Part shown: positions 15,908-22,125 of the stretch, one piece after another
Numbering within the stretch: the first letter of the stretch is position 1
Layout: each line of letters begins with the position of its first letter
Source of the DNA: Candidatus Scalindua sp.
Lineage (GTDB): Bacteria; Planctomycetota; Brocadiia; Brocadiales; Scalinduaceae
Length of the DNA stretch: 32,000 bases
Reading direction: 5' to 3'
Assembly: GCA_031316235.1 (NCBI GenBank)
Contig: JALDRA010000001.1
Location: 1,890,001-1,922,000 of the forward strand
Made by a program: the position numbers and the translations under genes
Notes under the pieces: model-generated
Told to the model about the DNA's origin: nothing
What the model saw: the letters and a program-made list of their open reading frames with translations, nothing else
Database searches by the model: none

Positions 15908-16741
15908 ATGAAGCGACCAGAAGTCTTGAGAATTTTATCTGTGGGTATCCTGGTTACACTCTTGGTGGTTGGAGTGTCTGAAAAGGTGTATTCAGCACAA
16001 AAGGTGTATGACTTTAAATCCGCAGAAATTGAAATGAGGACTGTAGACCCGATGAGCAACGTGACGACGGAGACGGTACGTATTGATAACTGGGGTGAAT
16101 ACGAATCCCGCCATAGCTCCAGTACCATCAAGATGATGGGAATGGAACAGAAGCATGAGAGCATTACCTACACAGATCGTAACGAAAATGTTGTCTACAA
16201 TTATGATCCGAAGATGAACCAGGCAACAAAAGTAGATATTACAAAAGCCCTGGAGGGTATGAATAAAGGGAACAAAGAGTATGTTTATAGCGAGGAAGCG
16301 CTCAAGAAGTGGGGTGGTACGAAGCTTCGATCTGAAGAATTTTTAGGGTTACAGTGTGATGTCATAGAATTTTCTCAATTTTTTACTACCGTTTGGTTCC
16401 ACAAAAAATTTCCCGTAAAATCGGAGACGAACATGGGCGCAATGAAGGTGAAGACCGAAGCAGTACGTTTCAAGGAAGGTGTCTCGTTTGCAAAAAAAGA
16501 TATCACGTTACCAGAAGGGGTGAAAATTGTCGATGCTCCCGATATCGGAAATATCATGGGCCAGATCAATGCACAGAAAAAAATGCCCGGTAACCGCGGG
16601 GATGCTGAAGGGAGTGACAGTCAACCGAACAATGAATTCGATCCAGAGGAAATGCCTGATTTTGGAGAAATGCCCAACAGGGAAAAGGCGATGGAGGCAT
16701 TTGAATCTATGAGAAAAATGTTCCGGAATCTGGAAAAGTAA
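15908..16741 (+). CDS. Hypothetical secreted protein
   Basis: Signal-like N-terminus (LRILSVGILVTLLVVGVSEKVYSA), an acidic C-terminal tail, and GGGAAAAAG upstream of the ATG. No family recognised. Confidence 0.65.
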   Translation: MKRPEVLRILSVGILVTLLVVGVSEKVYSAQKVYDFKSAEIEMRTVDPMSNVTTETVRIDNWGEYESRHSSSTIKMMGMEQKHESITYTDRNENVVYNYDPKMNQATKVDITKALEGMNKGNKEYVYSEEALKKWGGTKLRSEEFLGLQCDVIEFSQFFTTVWFHKKFPVKSETNMGAMKVKTEAVRFKEGVSFAKKDITLPEGVKIVDAPDIGNIMGQINAQKKMPGNRGDAEGSDSQPNNEFDPEEMPDFGEMPNREKAMEAFESMRKMFRNLEK

Positions 16742-16780
16742 TTGCCAACCAGTATAACGATTCCTGATTATACTAAAACC

Positions 16781-16880
16781 GATTTGGTTTTCGGTTTTAC
16801 CGGAAACCAAATCTTGGTGAAGGTATACTCGCTCAATTTTGTCTCGGATAGTATCCGAAAACCATTGTGAGATGAGTATA
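16781..16880. repeat. Direct repeat copy 1 (degenerate version of the structured element at 21652-21767)
   Basis: Ungapped hand alignment of 16781-16880 to 21668-21767 gives 91/100 identical bases. The copy contains the right arm of the long hairpin and the second hairpin (tcggat/atccga). Confidence 0.85.
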
Positions 16881-17273
16881 GCATCGCATTGAAGAGGAGC
16901 AATGGAGTTGTAATAAGCTTGTTGAAATTTTCAGGAATAAAGAGGAGACACCAAAAACCATGCTTACACATGCGATTAACGCTCTTTGTGGCTAGAGGTT
17001 ATGGAAGAGAGAGGGGCGCCCGGAAAGGCGAAAGAAACCCGATGGGCGGCAAGAGATGCCGGAAAGAAGGATAAGGGTGTTTTTTTATAAGAATTGAATA
17101 TTTACTACCGAGGCAGTAGCAAAGGATACCATTGCCTGAAACATTAAAAAAATGGCTATACTTGATCTTGAATCTATTTAAAGCAAAAAGAACTAATCTT
17201 GTCATTCTTCAGAAATAGCAAGGTATCCTATACTTTGGCCTAGGTAGTATAAGCTATAGCAAAAGGGAAACTT

Positions 17274-18579
17274 ATGAAAACTTCAGAAGTCTTCGGTGTT
17301 TCAAACAAACAAGTTGCTTCATATATTGATCGAGAAGAGGTTGATACAGAATTTATTAAAGGCCTAGAGCGAAATAAGCACATAATAATTTTTGGCGCAT
17401 CTAAACAGGGAAAAACTGCATTAACAAACAAACACCTTCACAAAGACCAATTTGTTAGAGTAAATTGTGCTCCGCAAACAACTTCAATCGATATCTATAA
17501 ATCAATTCTAAGGCAATTGGATGTCGAGTTCGAAGAAGAACGAACGGAAAAAAACCCCATTGAAACTTCCGCAAAAGTATCCTTAAAAGTGAAGGTCAAA
17601 ATACCAATTTTCGCCAGCGGCGAAGCTGGTGCTGAGGGTGGAGGAATACGGGAAAAAGAAACCGAAAAAAAAATATACCTCTATAGAGTACAACCTTACT
17701 CTTCCTCAAGATGTTTCCGAAATATTAAACGCGATTACTTTTAACAAACGAATTATTTTAGAAAATTTTCACTACTTAGACGAAGACATACAGAAAGAAC
17801 TTGCATTCCATCTCAGGGTTTTTGAGGATGCCAACATCCTTTTCATTGTTCTTGGGATATGGAGAGAAAAGAATCGGCTTGCTCAGTATAATGGTGATCT
17901 TCAGGACCGCCTTATTGAAATACCGGTAGAGCCATGGACAAATGACAATTTCAAGAAAGTCGCCAAAATTGGAGAGAATCTATTAAACGCCTCATTAAGC
18001 CAAATAATTAATGATATAATTTCAAACTCATTTGATAGCATCGGAGTTTTCCAGGAATTATGCAAAGAGTCCTGTTTAGCAGGAAATGTAACCGAAATTC
18101 AAAAAAAAGAAGTGTGCCTTACTGCGGATAACTTGAATGTAGCTAAGACCAAGAAGTTAGATGATTACTCAGGTAGGCATATAAGAAGTATAGAAACATT
18201 TGTTGAACAAAGAGCGAAAAGTTCAAACGAGATACCACTGTATATTGCCTATTACTTTATTAAACACTTATTAAGTCTTAATTTTGACAGCATTCAGGAA
18301 GGCATCAGACGGCCTGTTTTGCATGAAGGCATTAAAAGCATACATCATCGCCCTGAGGATGTTAGAGCTTCTGATATAAGTTATTTCTTACACAACATTG
18401 TTTCTACACAGGTAAAGAAAAACATCATTCCTCCCTTATTTGATTATGATAGAAGTACTAGAAAGCTTAAAATTATTGACTCAACCCTTTATTTCTTTCT
18501 ACCGAATGCAAATAAAAATGAAATTCTTGAAGAATTGGATCCGCCAGCCAGTATGAAATTTGATAATAGCGGTCACTAG
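17274..18579 (+). pseudogene. P-loop NTPase (~434 aa if repaired) interrupted by a +1 frameshift in an A9 run
   Basis: ORFs 17274..17744 (frame 0) and 17629..18579 (frame +1) overlap. Both read through the A9 run at 17665-17673 as Lys codons. Joining them gives ...REKETEKK|YTSIEYNLTLPQ. Walker A is FGASKQGKTAL (aa 40-50) and the Walker-B-like segment is RIILENFHYLDED. An AAGGGA Shine-Dalgarno sits 6 nt before the ATG. Confidence 0.7.
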
Positions 18580-18749
18580 ACAACATGATAGGCCCAAACC
18601 TCAGACACCAACGCCCCCATCCACCCAAGAAAACCAGTGGTCAAAGTTGAAGGGGTGGGGTTAGGTTGTTTTTTTATTACCAATATTATTGAATTCATTG
18701 ATTTCACGGTTAGGTGGGAAAATAAAGAAAATTTTATTAAGATCGAATT

Positions 18750-18777
18750 TTGACATTTTGTATAAATCAGCTATTAT
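18750..18777 (+). promoter_or_regulatory. Sigma-70-like promoter candidate for the three-gene operon
   Basis: TTGACA (18750-18755), a 16-nt spacer, then TATTAT (18772-18777), about 45 nt upstream of the 18821 start. The background is AT-rich, so chance matches are likely. Confidence 0.35.
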
Positions 18778-18820
18778 ATAATCATAATCATTATGAAACT
18801 GATTAAATAAAATTACTGGC

Positions 18821-19561
18821 ATGACAAAAGAAAGACATTTATCCAACCCTCCAATTATTGAGGCCGTTATTGATTTGCGTGTTAAACGAAATGTAAATTT
18901 TGAAATTTCTTCTTTAACTTCATTAAAAGACAGTCTTGAAAAATCCTTTCCAAAATGTACAGAGGCAAGATCTTTTCACTTCGCTGTTAAGAATGAACTT
19001 AACTTACAATTTGAGCATAAAAAAGAACTGCTACATGGATATTTATTAAAAACAGAAGACGAAAAAAAGGCTATACAATTAAAGAGAGATGGCCTTTGCT
19101 ATAGCCACTTACAACCGTATACAAAATGGGAAGACCTATTTTTAAAAGCTAAAGAACTATGGGGATTATATAAAAATGCCTGCGATCCAGAAAAAATAAC
19201 AAGAGTTGCACTTAGGTATATTAACCATATTAATGTTCCAAATGAAAAAATTGCTTTCGCTGATTATTTAGAAAGTCCACCTGTAATGCCGAAGGGAAGT
19301 ACCCAAAATATTAATAGTTTTTTATCTAAAATAGTTTTTACTTATTCGCAGCAAAATATCATGGCAAATTTTATTCAATCATATGAATTCAGAGGGAAGC
19401 AGAATTTGCCGACAATAATTATTGATATTGATGTTTATCAAAATAAAGAATACGAACCTGACGATAAAAATGTATGGCCGTTATTTGATCAGTTTAGAAA
19501 AATAAAAAATGATCTATTTTTTGGTAATATTACTGAAAAAACCGTGGAGATGTTCGAATGA
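18821..19561 (+). CDS. TIGR04255-like family protein (uncharacterised, sporadically distributed family)
   Basis: N-terminal NPPIIEAVIDLRV, central RVALRYINHINV and C-terminal TIIIDIDVY match my recollection of the TIGR04255 signature blocks. The ~246 aa length also fits. No function is known. Confidence 0.65.
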   Translation: MTKERHLSNPPIIEAVIDLRVKRNVNFEISSLTSLKDSLEKSFPKCTEARSFHFAVKNELNLQFEHKKELLHGYLLKTEDEKKAIQLKRDGLCYSHLQPYTKWEDLFLKAKELWGLYKNACDPEKITRVALRYINHINVPNEKIAFADYLESPPVMPKGSTQNINSFLSKIVFTYSQQNIMANFIQSYEFRGKQNLPTIIIDIDVYQNKEYEPDDKNVWPLFDQFRKIKNDLFFGNITEKTVEMFE

Positions 19562-20073
19562 ATTATGCAATGAGTTGGTCATGTGCTGAACTTTGGCAAC
19601 ATTTAAATAAAATGCAATTGGAAGATTCGACTAGCCGGGCAATAAGTGAGGACGCTGATCAAACAAAAACACAGCTATCTGAAATTTCTACCGAGCTTCA
19701 CAATAATATTACATTAGGTGAGCCAATTTACAAAAATATAGAGTCATTAATCAATATTTTTGAAGAATGCAGCACTGATAATTGGGATGGCTATGGAGCT
19801 AAAGCCTTAACTGAGTCCTCACTTAACGAAGCTCTTCGTTTTATCAGAAGCTTACCGATCACCATGCCTTCTCCCGAATTGTCCATTGAACCTTCAGGTG
19901 AAATAGCTTTTGAGTGGCATATAGCACCACGTAAAACATTTTGTGTTAGTGTTGACGACAACTTACTTACATATGCTGGCATTTTTGGAAGTAGCAAAAC
20001 ACACGGGACAGAATATTTTGAATATGAAATACCTAAAACAATTATTGATTGCATTCAAAGAGTATTTCAGTAA
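19558..20073 (+). CDS. Hypothetical protein, no family recognised
   Basis: The start overlaps the upstream stop (ATGA), with GGAG about 9 nt upstream. The C-terminal half has NWDGYGAKAL...SLP...PSGEIAFEW. No catalytic motif recognised. Confidence 0.6.
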   Translation: MNYAMSWSCAELWQHLNKMQLEDSTSRAISEDADQTKTQLSEISTELHNNITLGEPIYKNIESLINIFEECSTDNWDGYGAKALTESSLNEALRFIRSLPITMPSPELSIEPSGEIAFEWHIAPRKTFCVSVDDNLLTYAGIFGSSKTHGTEYFEYEIPKTIIDCIQRVFQ

Positions 20074-20476
20074 GAAAAAAACTATAACTCTGCCTGACGA
20101 AATCAATTCTTTGGAACCTTTAGGGAGGTATCTACTTACTAAGAGTCAGTTTTCCCACCAAAAAAAAAGAGTTAAATACACTGCTTTCATGCCAAATCCC
20201 AACAATTTAGAGTTATCAGTTTTTAGAATATCCGGACTTTCGCAAAACAAAATATGGGAAATAGGAGAAAAATATCTCACAAAGAATTTAGAGAGAACTC
20301 TATATGGTATAGCTAGAATTATTGCATTAAAAGTTACTGATAACAAAGTACAGATTAAGTCTGACAACAATCCACCTCGGCATGCTAATATTGTTGGCTG
20401 GCCAAATGAAAAATCAGAACAGAAGTTAATTGCTCAAGAACTTGCTGCAAATGCTCAATTAGAATTGAAAATATAG
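20024..20476 (+). CDS. Hypothetical small protein, no family recognised
   Basis: The only ATG in this frame upstream of the conserved-looking body is at 20024, which overlaps the previous gene by 50 nt, so the start is uncertain. Notable segments are ELSVFRISGL and PPRHANIVGWPNEKSEQKLIAQELA. The gene contains an in-frame A9 run at 20160-20168. Confidence 0.55.
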   Translation: MKYLKQLLIAFKEYFSKKKTITLPDEINSLEPLGRYLLTKSQFSHQKKRVKYTAFMPNPNNLELSVFRISGLSQNKIWEIGEKYLTKNLERTLYGIARIIALKVTDNKVQIKSDNNPPRHANIVGWPNEKSEQKLIAQELAANAQLELKI

Positions 20477-20916
20477 AAACCTGATCGGGTAAAAATACCC
20501 GTAAAAGAGATAAATGAGCTCCTTGAGCATTCCGGCAACTATGCGGTTATCTGGCAAACGTTCCTTCGCTAATTGCTCATAGAAGCACCATCACCTCACT
20601 TGATATTTATACGAAGTGTTACAATGAGGATCTCGTATCCACTATGGATAATATTGATGTAGCAAAGGGCAACCGCTAGAAATTCCTTGCTCATACTCAA
20701 TTACTTTGCTACACTTCCTCCATGGAGCAAGAAAGAAAAAAACAATTTCTGAGCCTATTTTCTATGGTTTTCTTGTGCCCGGATAGTGCCCGCATTTACG
20801 CCGTATTCTGCGACAAATTGCGAAATCTTGCGGCCTTTTGTGTTAAGACATGCCAGGCTTTAAGTTATTTTACTGTTGTTAGTTACAACGTAAATACCGG
20901 CCGTATAACAGCTCAA

Positions 20917-20990
20917 GCGCCCATAGCTCAAATGGATAGAGTAACGGTCTACGAAACCGCAGGTTGCCCGTTCGAATCGGGCTGGGCGCA
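20917..20990 (+). tRNA. tRNA-Arg (anticodon ACG), CCA not encoded
   Basis: GCGCCCA-TA-GCTCAAATGGATAGAGT-A-ACGGT-CTACGAA-ACCGC-AGGTT-GCCCG-TTCGAAT-CGGGC-TGGGCGC-A. The anticodon loop is CT-ACG-AA. Confidence 0.9.
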
Positions 20991-20999
20991 TACTCAGGT

Positions 21000-21485
21000 A
21001 TGACAACTGCAAATACGATGGCTGAATTTCGTTCACACGAATACTATATGCAACAGGCTATTACTGAGGCAAAGATGGCTTATGAGAGAGATGAGGTCCC
21101 TGTAGGAGCGGTAATAGTTCATGAAGGCAAAATTATTGCAAGGGCGCACAACCAGCGGGAGATGCTGCTGGACCCAACGGCTCATGCAGAGATGATCGCA
21201 ATAACGCAGGCTGCATCATTTCTTCAAAATTGGAGATTAAGTAATACAACTATTTACGTTACCCTGGAACCTTGCGCAATGTGCACGGGAGCGTTGGTCC
21301 AGGCAAGGGTCAAAAGCCTTGTGTTTGGGGCTACGGATGAGAAGTATGGAGCGTGTGACGCTGTGCTGGGATTAGTAAATAATCCACGTTTCAATCACCA
21401 GGTACAGAGTATCTCCGGAGTTTTAGAAGATGAATGCCGTACACTTTTGAAACAATTTTTTCTGGAGAGATGCCGGAGCGGTTGA
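21000..21485 (+). CDS. tadA: tRNA-specific adenosine deaminase
   Basis: Motifs EVPVGAVIV, HAEMIAI and LEPCAMCTGAL (the CDA zinc motifs). I chose the ATG at 21000, with an alternative ATG at 21018. The ORF-track TTG at 20964 lies inside tRNA-Arg. Confidence 0.9.
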   Translation: MTTANTMAEFRSHEYYMQQAITEAKMAYERDEVPVGAVIVHEGKIIARAHNQREMLLDPTAHAEMIAITQAASFLQNWRLSNTTIYVTLEPCAMCTGALVQARVKSLVFGATDEKYGACDAVLGLVNNPRFNHQVQSISGVLEDECRTLLKQFFLERCRSG

Positions 21486-21553
21486 ACGGGGCGGTCTCGA
21501 AAACCGTTGTCCATCTTGATGGACCGGGGGTTCGAATCCCTCTCTCTCCGCCA
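21464..21553 (+). tRNA. tRNA-Ser (anticodon CGA), CCA encoded
   Basis: GGAGAGA acceptor stem, anticodon loop CT-CGA-AA, long variable arm TGTCCATCTTGATGGACCG, T-arm GGGGGTTCGAATCCCTC, and TCTCTCC-G-CCA at the 3' end. Confidence 0.9.
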
Positions 21554-21559
21554 AGCTTT

Positions 21560-21652
21560 GGAGAGGTGTCCGAGAGGCCGAAGGAGCACGCTTGGAAAGC
21601 GTGTAGGTGGGTAACCCCTGCCTCGCGGGTTCGAATCCCGCCCTCTCCGCCA
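21560..21652 (+). tRNA. tRNA-Ser (anticodon GGA), CCA encoded
   Basis: GGAGAGG acceptor stem, anticodon loop TT-GGA-AA, a long variable arm, T-arm CGCGGGTTCGAATCCCGC, and CCTCTCC-G-CCA at the 3' end. Confidence 0.9.
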
Positions 21653-21767
21653 GTATACCTTCACCAAGATTTGGTTTTCGTCTTTACCGGAAACCAAATC
21701 TTGGTGAAGGTATACTCACTCAATTTTATCTCGGATTTTATCCGAAATCCAGTATGAGATGAGTATA
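21652..21767. repeat. Direct repeat copy 2: structured element with a 26-bp perfect hairpin plus a second hairpin
   Basis: The left arm agtataccttcaccaagatttggttt (21652-21677) is the exact reverse complement of 21691-21716, with a 13-nt loop between them. A second imperfect hairpin follows (tatactcactca...tgagatgagtata with tcggat/atccga inside). Positions 21668-21767 are 91% identical to 16781-16880. Confidence 0.85.
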
Positions 21768-21855
21768 ACAACTGCGGACGAAAGCTATAAGTATGAAAAG
21801 CCTTTGCGTATTTTCATATTTTTGTTCCAACGATAGAGGTTTACGCAACAACTTT

Positions 21856-22125
21856 GGCCGTGCTAGATGGGGAGCTAGCGGTTCCTTGTACCTGCAATCC
21901 GCTTATGCAGGATCGATTGCTTTTTGGAGGTTTTTCTGACTTTTGATATTTTTTATGTAAGTGGTATTGAAGGCCGGGTCTCAGGAAATAAGGCTATGTG
22001 AACCTGGTCAGGTGCGGAAGCAAGCAGCCATAAGCATTGATTTCTTATGTGCCGTGAGGTAGCCTAGCCGGAGCTAACTGCATAGAAAATTCAAAGGGAA
22101 GTAAATCGAAAAAAAGTGCACGGCC
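21856..22125 (+). ncRNA. ffs: Signal recognition particle RNA, long (Bacillus-type) form with an Alu domain
   Basis: The 5' GGCCGTGCTAGATGGGGAGCTAGCGGTTCCTTGTACCTGCAATCCGCT is an Alu-domain motif. The domain IV core is CTGGTCAGGTGCGGAAGCAAGCAGCC ... GTGCCGTGAGGTAGCCTAGCCGGAGCTAACTGC. The 3' GTGCACGGCC pairs with the 5' end and is followed by a T-run. It is collinear with my memory of B. subtilis scRNA. Confidence 0.9.

Follow-up and report, generated by a model that had tools for sequence, protein, structure and literature searches.

A three-gene TIGR04255 operon beside a split NTPase gene in a low-GC islet of Candidatus Scalindua: a candidate toxin-antitoxin-like conflict module

The window analyzed here is a 32-kb stretch of a 4.15-Mb contig belonging to the metagenome-assembled genome of a Candidatus Scalindua species. 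An earlier note, made from the letters alone, had singled out its AT-rich segment at positions 17274-20476 as a four-gene cassette of a P-loop NTPase, a TIGR04255-like protein and two small proteins, and had proposed it as an undescribed defence system. Our open reading frame (ORF) calls agree with the four ORFs and the coordinates given for them. The segment holds two independent modules, namely module A, an NTPase gene broken by a frameshift, and module B, a three-gene operon (g2-g3-g4) headed by the TIGR04255-family gene. The features of the segment are as follows (aa, amino acids; nt, nucleotides).

17274-17744, + strand: N-terminal ORF of the NTPase, 156 aa
17629-18579, + strand: C-terminal ORF of the NTPase, 316 aa, in the +1 frame
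17665-17673, + strand: A9 homopolymer tract, the likeliest +1 frameshift site splitting the NTPase gene
18658-18677, + strand: G-rich box with a T7 run after it (GGGTTAGGTTGTTTTTTTAT), in the intermodule spacer; repeat family D13
18750-18777, + strand: sigma-70-like promoter candidate TTGACA-16-TATTAT, a consensus match only
18821-19561, + strand: g2, TIGR04255 family, first gene of module B, 246 aa
19546-19549 and 19558-19561, + strand: GGAG Shine-Dalgarno and ATGA stop/start overlap, coupling g2 to g3
19558-20073, + strand: g3, second gene of module B, 171 aa
19943/20024-20476, + strand: g4, third gene of module B, 177/150 aa; the ATG at 20024 is the supported start

At NCBI, g3 and g4 are MRK01_08095 and MRK01_08100, both annotated as hypothetical proteins. 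The sequence at 16820-21509 is identical, A9 tract included, in two separate Logan assemblies (SRR28338161/2).

Two independent modules in a low-GC islet

The N-terminal ORF of module A carries the Walker A motif GASKQGKT and loses the frame past about residue 131, and the C-terminal ORF carries the Walker-B-like motif ILENFHYL and a helical C-terminal region. Pfam gave AAA_22 just over threshold for the N-terminal ORF (E 1.2e-6) and noise only for the 316-aa ORF. Both halves match the PADLOC profile PDC-S59, the first at profile positions 4-131 of 428 (E 2.8e-27) and the second at positions 126-399 (E 2.5e-38), and the two matches end and start near nt 17669 and 17659, that is, at the A9 tract. 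Removing one base from this tract gives a 434-aa protein whose full length is colinear with that of intact 415-447-aa homologues, in agreement with the repaired length of about 434 aa in the earlier note. The two Walker motifs noted there are kept as well, since the family alignment shows little or no variation in G(A/S)SKQGKT and ILENFHYL. The family comprises 723 representatives at E <= 1e-3 with a typical length of 420-450 aa. In a neighbourhood sample of 80 NTPase-anchored metagenome loci (564 kb), about 75 contained a single intact ORF of 420-470 aa. The window gene thus matches PDC-S59 over positions 4-399 in two pieces and stands alone without a conserved partner, as the 'S' candidates do, but it differs from the intact members, which are single ORFs, in being split at the A9 tract. 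Because it is broken by a frameshift while the family members are single intact ORFs, the window NTPase is probably a pseudogene of the PDC-S59 candidate family, without activity unless slippage rescues it in part. As the break sits in an A9 run, a length at the threshold for such rescue, some molecules may regain the frame by phase variation or transcriptional slippage. The protein was not assigned to the STAND NTPases (nSTAND6 20.4 bits against a cut-off of 27.7; Avs4 14 bits against 1500), and no effector or sensor-repeat domain was found in it by profile searches.

The relation between the NTPase and the other three genes was examined from both sides. Among the 80 NTPase-anchored loci, no gene family adjoined the NTPase in more than two, and relatives of g2, g3 or g4 occurred in none. 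For the converse, one genome per species (185,579 species) was scanned with the g3 alignment, which yielded 299 relatives; 80 loci were retained, and the ORFs called in them were searched with hidden Markov models (HMMs) built from the window proteins. NTPase homologues were present in 0 of these 80 g3-anchored loci. All four genes could in principle form one NTPase-driven system, in which the three small proteins would be partners or effectors of an NTPase acting as sensor or motor. They are adjacent, on the same strand and within the same low-GC islet, and an NTPase accompanied by small proteins of unknown function is a common defence architecture. Co-occurrence was nevertheless zero in both directions, the NTPase belongs to a single-gene candidate family without conserved neighbours, a 241-nt spacer containing the strongest promoter-like site separates it from g2, and the operon is intact, unlike the frameshifted NTPase. 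We consider such a four-gene system extremely improbable. Since the NTPase relatives never adjoin the other three genes in the loci sampled, the cassette described in the earlier note is not one system, and the real unit is the widespread three-gene TIGR04255-g3-g4 operon.

This unit is among the more rigidly conserved small operons traced in this analysis. The order and strand of g2-g3-g4 are kept in 52 of the 80 g3-anchored loci, g4 comes immediately after g3 or overlaps it in 70, and among 56 homologous loci 50 show a g2/g3 overlap of precisely 4 nt. The loci come from Nitrospirota, Desulfobacterota, Chloroflexota, Planctomycetota, Bacteroidota, Acidobacteriota, Gemmatimonadota, Verrucomicrobiota, Pseudomonadota, Spirochaetota, Calditrichota, Deferribacterota, KSB1 and Desantisbacteria, and the three-gene unit itself was drawn from at least 12 phyla. 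In the window, the signals from which the earlier note had recognized an operon (ATGA overlap, GGAG, overlap of g4 with g3, promoter-like site) are all present. The ATG of g4 at 20024 overlaps g3 by 50 nt and is backed by homologues that open with MNYLKQ or MKYLKR. The TTGACA-16-TATTAT site matches 11 of 12 consensus positions and is the top promoter-like site in 16700-21000, a region in which such sites in total (17) are not above those in shuffled sequences (14.4).

Other Scalindua and Brocadiaceae copies of the operon encode g3 proteins only 39-40% identical to that of the window and lie at a different locus, where a fused PGK gene and an epimerase gene flank them, from which we conclude that the operon is horizontally mobile. 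The isolate Rhodocaloribacter litoris carries g2-g3-g4 on its own between sucA and the atp operon (CP076718.1, about 2,637,698-2,639,334), a lone three-gene insert that points to a self-contained unit. L021 and L053 hold decayed copies. Module B is best explained as an intact, translationally coupled, widespread and horizontally mobile operon with its own promoter-like site.

Composition sets the whole segment apart from its surroundings. The GC content of 17274-20476 is 34.0% compared with 41.2% in the rest of the window, which makes it the lowest-GC 3.2-kb interval of the 32 kb, about 4 standard deviations under the non-overlapping intervals, and GC at third codon positions is 22-28% in g2-g4 against 41-48% in the flanking genes. 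The hand counts in the earlier note (25-33% against 40-48%) overstated this contrast, which is nevertheless real in direction and significant; the note's description of a compositionally foreign segment adjoining tRNAs fits both these figures and the tRNA-Arg and two tRNA-Ser genes nearby. The segment is best explained as a horizontally acquired low-GC islet holding two independent conflict-type modules. A PpiD-like protein, a CAAX protease and a 277-aa protein are encoded on its left, and tRNA-Arg, tadA, two tRNA-Ser, the signal recognition particle (SRP) RNA and dnaX follow in this order on its right:

20917-20990: tRNA-Arg(ACG), directly 5' of tadA and overlapping the longest tadA ORF
21464-21652: two tRNA-Ser
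21858-22123: SRP RNA, with dnaX after it

The product of tadA is the deaminase that edits A34 of exactly tRNA-Arg(ACG). An Rfam search across the islet returned tRNA only, together with one sub-threshold antisense match on that tRNA. A 103-nt direct repeat, 90% identical between its copies, lies at 16781-16883 and 21668-21770. The second copy begins 16 nt past tRNA-Ser(GGA) and forms, with the adjoining upstream bases, a near-perfect 29-bp hairpin (one mismatch; it folds with a G-U pair); a second hairpin is also part of this fold (dG -61.9 kcal/mol, z -10.65), and the first copy lacks the outer 5' arm. Rfam does not match the repeat, and none of the 196 other loci searched contains it. As it brackets tRNA-Arg, tadA and both tRNA-Ser besides the islet, it was ruled out as a simple integration scar with duplicated att sites. 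The G-rich box with its T7 run also occurs twice, at 17069-17088 and 18658-18677 (GG(G/A)T(T/A)AGG(T/G)TGTTTTTTTAT; 85% identity), about 190 nt 5' of the NTPase start and about 145 nt 5' of the TIGR04255 start. It was not called by the terminator scan and may be a candidate terminator or boundary element preceding each module. At 20480-20680, between g4 and tRNA-Arg, two frames read '...KEINELLEHS...' and '...LIAHRSTITSLDIYTK...', which recall the H-x3-T-x2-Y C-terminal box of tyrosine recombinases; an integrase remnant suggested by these motifs was supported neither by Pfam nor by tblastn against phages.

The three proteins of the operon

The g2 protein matches NCBIfam TIGR04255 with 133 bits against a cut-off of 30 (E 1.6e-38), residues 7-245 aligning with positions 2-251 of 252; the earlier note had already described it as TIGR04255-like, and it is a full-length member of this family. 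Its AlphaFold2 (AF2) model, built with 48 homologues, is confident (pLDDT 91.7) and consists of two tandem beta-alpha-beta4-alpha units. Foldseek placed TATA-binding proteins (TBPs) on top (1tbp_A, E 2.4e-4, prob 1.0, TM ~0.3), and the predicted fold is TBP-like and pseudo-dimeric. The likeness to the TBP-domain superfamily (TATA-binding protein, the N-domain of RNase HIII and others) is confined to this structural level: the top matches have prob 0.95-1.0, but TM values are 0.27-0.38, there is no sequence similarity, and TIGR04255 is bacterial and operon-linked. SecB was absent among the top 50 Foldseek matches listed for the model. The g2 profile found no real relatives among PDB sequences; 9hnh, the sole PDB match of the TIGR04255 profile below 0.01, is a de novo designed solenoid and was rejected as spurious. 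Across the family, E14, R132, N135, D202, D204, K229 and N230 are invariant polar residues. None of 48 TIGR04255 members matches PADLOC, and the term TIGR04255 was not found in the main text of the roughly 8 million searchable papers and preprints.

The g3 protein begins with some 60 variable residues, and a conserved C-terminal domain follows with the motifs NWDGYGA, PxPE, EPxGEIAFEW, YAGIFG and HG, after which we name it the 'WDGYG' domain. Its 81 homologues are all unnamed, and it has no Pfam, PDB-sequence or informative PHROG match. The family does match the C-terminal part of the PADLOC profile PDC-M32A, in 24 of 29 members with a best E of 1.7e-4; the window protein itself matches at E 0.037 and over profile positions 269-323 of 375 only. 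A relative, P0072, has an HTH_17 domain fused to the g3 domain and lies among small ORFs. We do not take this fusion as proof of an antitoxin architecture, as this orphan has no neighbouring g4.

Relatives of g3 also occur in viral contigs. IMG/VR yielded 2 complete operons, 4 pairs of g3-like and g4-like genes and about 20 orphan ORFs of 95-135 aa made up of nothing but the g3 domain (contigs L085-L095, L097, L098 and L101-L104), and the complete operon was found in 2 of 29 g3-anchored viral loci. Two more orphan domains lie in one bacterial chromosome (L076, 4283-4627 and 8100-8450). The orphan domains have no Pfam match and one marginal PHROG match of unknown function (E 0.005), and two of the viral copies gave no tblastn match in plasmids and isolated phages. 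Among g3 relatives (window g3; L029, 7746-8333) there are weak matches to families of the T7 gp5.9/RecBCD-inhibitor type (PF25708, E 1e-4; phrog_4790, E 0.0055), the matches being centred on or near an acidic stretch at the W-D-G-Y motif.

Such matches, together with the orphan ORFs of viral contigs, raise the question of whether mobile elements carry the operon as anti-defence or anti-restriction cargo in which g3-like proteins would inhibit host nucleases. RadC/DprA-like neighbours, which accompany some copies as described below, are typical of the leading regions of conjugative elements and also count in favour of this explanation. The gp5.9 matches are marginal, involve a short acidic stretch only and are probably due to chance. 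The full operon, moreover, lies co-oriented inside chromosomal restriction-modification (R-M) operons and is complete in few of the viral loci. We regard the anti-defence explanation as quite improbable.

The g4 protein has 58 homologues of 125-170 aa. P57, S65, V66, H120, A121, W126 and A137 are invariant, and R35, R68 and N122 nearly so. No Pfam family was found for it, and its profile retrieved no real relatives from PDB sequences. The AF2 model is confident (pLDDT 94) and predicts a compact alpha/beta protein. Its best PDB matches in Foldseek are AvrPphF ORF2 and Tpt1/KptA at E 0.16-0.24 and TM 0.38-0.41 (1s21, E 0.16; 9ldi, E 0.24, prob 0.75, TM 0.41), and RNA 2'-phosphotransferases (Tpt1) recur among the weak matches in BFVD at E >1. 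The top weak matches from two libraries thus share the fold of the ADP-ribosyltransferase (ART) enzymes, such as Tpt1/KptA, HopF/AvrPphF and DarT, and the conserved Arg on strand 1 and Ser on strand 2 may recall the R-S of the R-S-E motif, one of the active-site patterns (H-Y-E, R-S-E and, in Tpt1, R-H-R-R) with which R35, S65, R68 and H120 were compared. The protein differs from these enzymes in that it has no conserved catalytic Glu, has an invariant His (RHANI) in the last motif and is, at 125-150 aa, shorter than the known members. An ART-type fold is therefore a recurrent hint from the predicted structure and not a result. In sequence, the window g4 weakly matches PDC-M32B at E 0.0019-0.0029 over profile positions 17-114 of 123, and other family members do not (1 of 31).

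Swapped partners and genomic company

The TIGR04255 protein is not tied to g3 and g4. Distant TIGR04255 members, 19-33% identical to g2, are followed by a co-directional second gene, usually with a 4-nt overlap, and then by a third small gene. The second and third positions are not in every case taken by g3 and g4, which form the commonest partner pair among the TIGR04255-anchored loci examined. In the viral contigs L210-L214, the second gene encodes 186-229 aa and the third 150-165 aa, the latter with motifs colinear with g4 (R-[HY], PxAF, LSV and HA). In hhalign, g4 and the A9-type third genes, and likewise g3 and the A10-type second genes, are colinear at non-significant E values of 0.33 and 0.22, and the reciprocal HMM rankings are no more than suggestive; we do not claim homology. 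The merged alignments found no real relatives among PDB sequences, and an eL13 match of the merged alignment A8 was judged to be noise; PHROG searches yielded marginal matches only.

Plasmids carry TIGR04255-led operons of this broader kind. Crinalium epipsammum plasmid pCRI9333.03 has TIGR04255 with genes of 182 and 171 aa, and Thermus brockianus pTB1 has TIGR04255 with a 147-aa gene, adjoining VapBC and cas6. On the Vibrio parahaemolyticus plasmid CP063527.1 (L218, 158-2105), TIGR04255 is followed by a 179-aa protein and a third gene overlapping by 4 nt, which carries a GAGKST P-loop and is annotated in the record as 'zeta toxin family protein'; this plasmid is a natural experiment tying TIGR04255 to a known toxin family. 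The first position can be exchanged as well. Ten of 15 g3-g4 loci without TIGR04255 have another gene of 219-240 aa directly upstream, before a longer g3 of 190-240 aa (L032 59-718, L041, L043, L047, L049, L052, L066, L077, L033 6912-7634 and L068 6898-7614). It shows no homology to TIGR04255 in hhalign and appears to be an alternative first component. The picture that emerges is of a first gene and a pair of second and third genes as modules that recombine.

To describe the company of the operon itself, the three nearest ORFs on each side of the 80 g3-anchored loci were clustered, and 144 immediate neighbours were labelled by Pfam and PADLOC. In 16 of the 80 loci, type I R-M genes are found no more than three ORFs away, an enrichment that is qualitative. 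HsdS labels 7 of the 144 immediate neighbours, RadC/UPF0758 5-6, and ResIII, GIY-YIG, NTP_transf_2 and DprA-like proteins 3 each. Some copies are embedded in R-M loci or islands: one has the order hsdM-hsdS-[g2-g3-g4]-hsdR (L059; its HsdR matches that of EcoR124I at E 1e-30), two have the order hsdR-hsdM-hsdS-g2-g3-g4-radC (L195 and L196), with radC (7245-7904 in L195) overlapping g4 by 4 nt, one follows a block of N6_N4 methyltransferase, AAA, S8 protease and ResIII genes, and one stands at the end of an island that encodes an integrase and an excisionase-like helix-turn-helix protein. A RadC/UPF0758 (JAB) gene stands directly 3' of g4, like a fourth operon gene, in L038, L039, L015, L026 and others, and DprA-like ORFs are found 3' of g4 elsewhere, the two together accounting for 12 of the 80 loci.

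These neighbours bear on a role in nucleic-acid repair or modification, in which a TBP-like binder and a Tpt1-like enzyme would act on RNA or DNA ends together with RadC/DprA-type proteins. The predicted TBP-like fold of TIGR04255 and its many invariant polar residues would suit such a pathway, as would the weak Tpt1/KptA-like matches of g4. A repair pathway would sit badly, on the other hand, with a distribution as sporadic as 299 matches over 185,579 species, with the foreign composition, with copies inside R-M operons, with swapped second and third genes of which one is annotated as a zeta toxin, and with the decayed copies. Because the operon is sporadic, foreign, R-M-embedded, partner-swapping and decaying, we place it with conflict or mobile functions rather than with housekeeping repair, and consider the repair explanation unlikely.

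The plasmid and R-M associations are also what would be expected of a selfish addiction module, that is, a tripartite toxin-antitoxin that stabilizes mobile elements and R-M loci and has no anti-phage role. Its gene logic would be the same as in the toxin-antitoxin-like reading that we favour below, and operons of the broader class include integrase-island cargo, members of R-M loci, a copy beside VapBC on a plasmid and the zeta-toxin variant on a small plasmid. The g3-type operon, however, is absent from PLSDB plasmids and is often a lone three-gene chromosomal insert, and the orphan g3 domains of viral contigs fit a phage counter-measure better. Pure addiction is in our judgement a minor candidate that we do not expect to prevail.

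Relation to known systems and proposed function

The PDC candidates (n=145) were defined by their embedding in R-M, BREX or DISARM loci, and PDC-M32, found by this guilt-by-embedding approach, is the two-gene cassette FAM_01821>>FAM_00608 (Payne et al., doi 10.1101/2024.01.29.577857). In the searched literature, PDC-S59 was not found and PDC-M32 appeared only in a prophage survey and in the supplementary table of the PDC paper. Our operon may resemble PDC-M32 in the g3 domain, which matches part of PDC-M32A, and in the weak match of the window g4 to PDC-M32B; the R-M-embedded context of some copies is of the same kind. It differs in having three genes rather than two and in that the 171-aa g3 shares only about 55 positions with M32A. 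Because of the three genes, the domain-level match of protein A and the absence of TIGR04255 from PADLOC, the operon is not a member of PDC-M32; judged by sequence, it is best described as a putative distant three-gene relative of that candidate. The PADLOC search that the earlier note had called for gave a divided answer, identifying the NTPase as PDC-S59 and returning for the operon only the weak M32A and M32B matches. The structural searches it had likewise suggested, run on g2 and g4, gave a TBP-like assignment for g2 and, for g4, ART-like matches below significance. Its broader impressions held up: the genes do have the footprint of conflict systems, no known effector domain is recognizable by Pfam and PDB-sequence searches, and the combination of genes has no name in the searched literature or in PADLOC.

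Several other known systems offer comparisons. Like PrrC, RloC and the HEC and PDC systems of type I R-M loci, the operon can lie between or after hsdM-hsdS and hsdR in the same orientation; unlike them, it has no ABC ATPase, anticodon-nuclease or other recognized domain, and it is found in this context in 16 of the 80 loci. With type II toxin-antitoxin systems it shares an adjacent or overlapping co-directional pair of small genes, g3-g4, in 70 of the 80 loci. With omega-epsilon-zeta and the toxin-antitoxin-chaperone (TAC) systems (HigBA-SecB-like, CmdTAC) it shares three small coupled genes. SecB-like chaperones combine with different toxin-antitoxin families, and the pairing of TIGR04255 with varied second and third genes (g3/g4, A10/A9-type, others and the zeta-annotated one) may be analogous. 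TIGR04255 differs from the third components of these systems in standing first in the operon and in being, by prediction, TBP-like rather than SecB-like or an omega ribbon-helix-helix protein, and g3 and g4 are unrelated in sequence to known antitoxins and toxins.

With moderate confidence, we infer that module B is a three-component toxin-antitoxin-like module for abortive infection or defence. In this proposal, g4 would be the effector or toxin, a small enzyme marked by conserved Arg, Ser and His and perhaps of ADP-ribosyltransferase/Tpt1-like fold; g3 would bind and neutralize it through the conserved 'WDGYG' domain; and TIGR04255 would act as a sensor, chaperone or regulator of g3 that frees g4 upon a trigger such as phage infection. 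These roles are suggested by the small coupled genes and the zeta-toxin variant in third position, and by the orphan g3 copies in viral contigs, which may be decoys, together with the analogy to omega-epsilon-zeta and toxin-antitoxin-chaperone systems.

Several points weigh against this proposal. Toxicity, neutralization and phage protection are all properties that we infer for module B. The fold matches of g4 are below significance, and the conserved Glu of classical ART triads is missing. The invariant polar residues of TIGR04255 would suit an enzyme or a ligand pocket better than a passive chaperone. The window g3 has no DNA-binding domain in Pfam searches and so lacks this mark of an autoregulating antitoxin. 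The matches to PDC-M32 are weak and partial, and PDC-M32 is itself only a candidate. The enrichment of defence genes is qualitative, type I R-M genes are missing from the three nearest ORFs on either side in 64 of the 80 loci, and some copies lie between housekeeping genes. Finally, g3 had no tblastn match in 72,556 PLSDB plasmids or 50,697 INPHARED isolated phages, and such an absence is unusual for a toxin-antitoxin or defence module.

A wider and more speculative model, which we hold as possible and rather doubtful, extends the toxin-antitoxin-like proposal beyond the window. TIGR04255 would be a promiscuous TBP-fold third component, a sensor or chaperone, heading a class of tripartite anti-phage or toxin-antitoxin operons with swappable neutralizer-effector pairs, g4 would represent a new minimal ART/Tpt1-like toxin family, and the orphan g3 domains of phages would be decoys. 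Cultured carriers exist and make the finding directly testable: a g3/g4-type operon is present in Rhodocaloribacter litoris, and other TIGR04255-led operons are present in Crinalium epipsammum PCC 9333, Thermus brockianus and the Vibrio parahaemolyticus plasmid. For annotation pipelines, the locus provides a lesson that an NTPase beside small unknown genes in an AT-rich islet does not amount to one system here. If the tripartite model were true, the operon would contribute a new effector family, a new neutralizer domain and a new type of third component that is also paired with at least one gene annotated as a known toxin (zeta), and it would give a concrete function to the PADLOC candidate PDC-M32.

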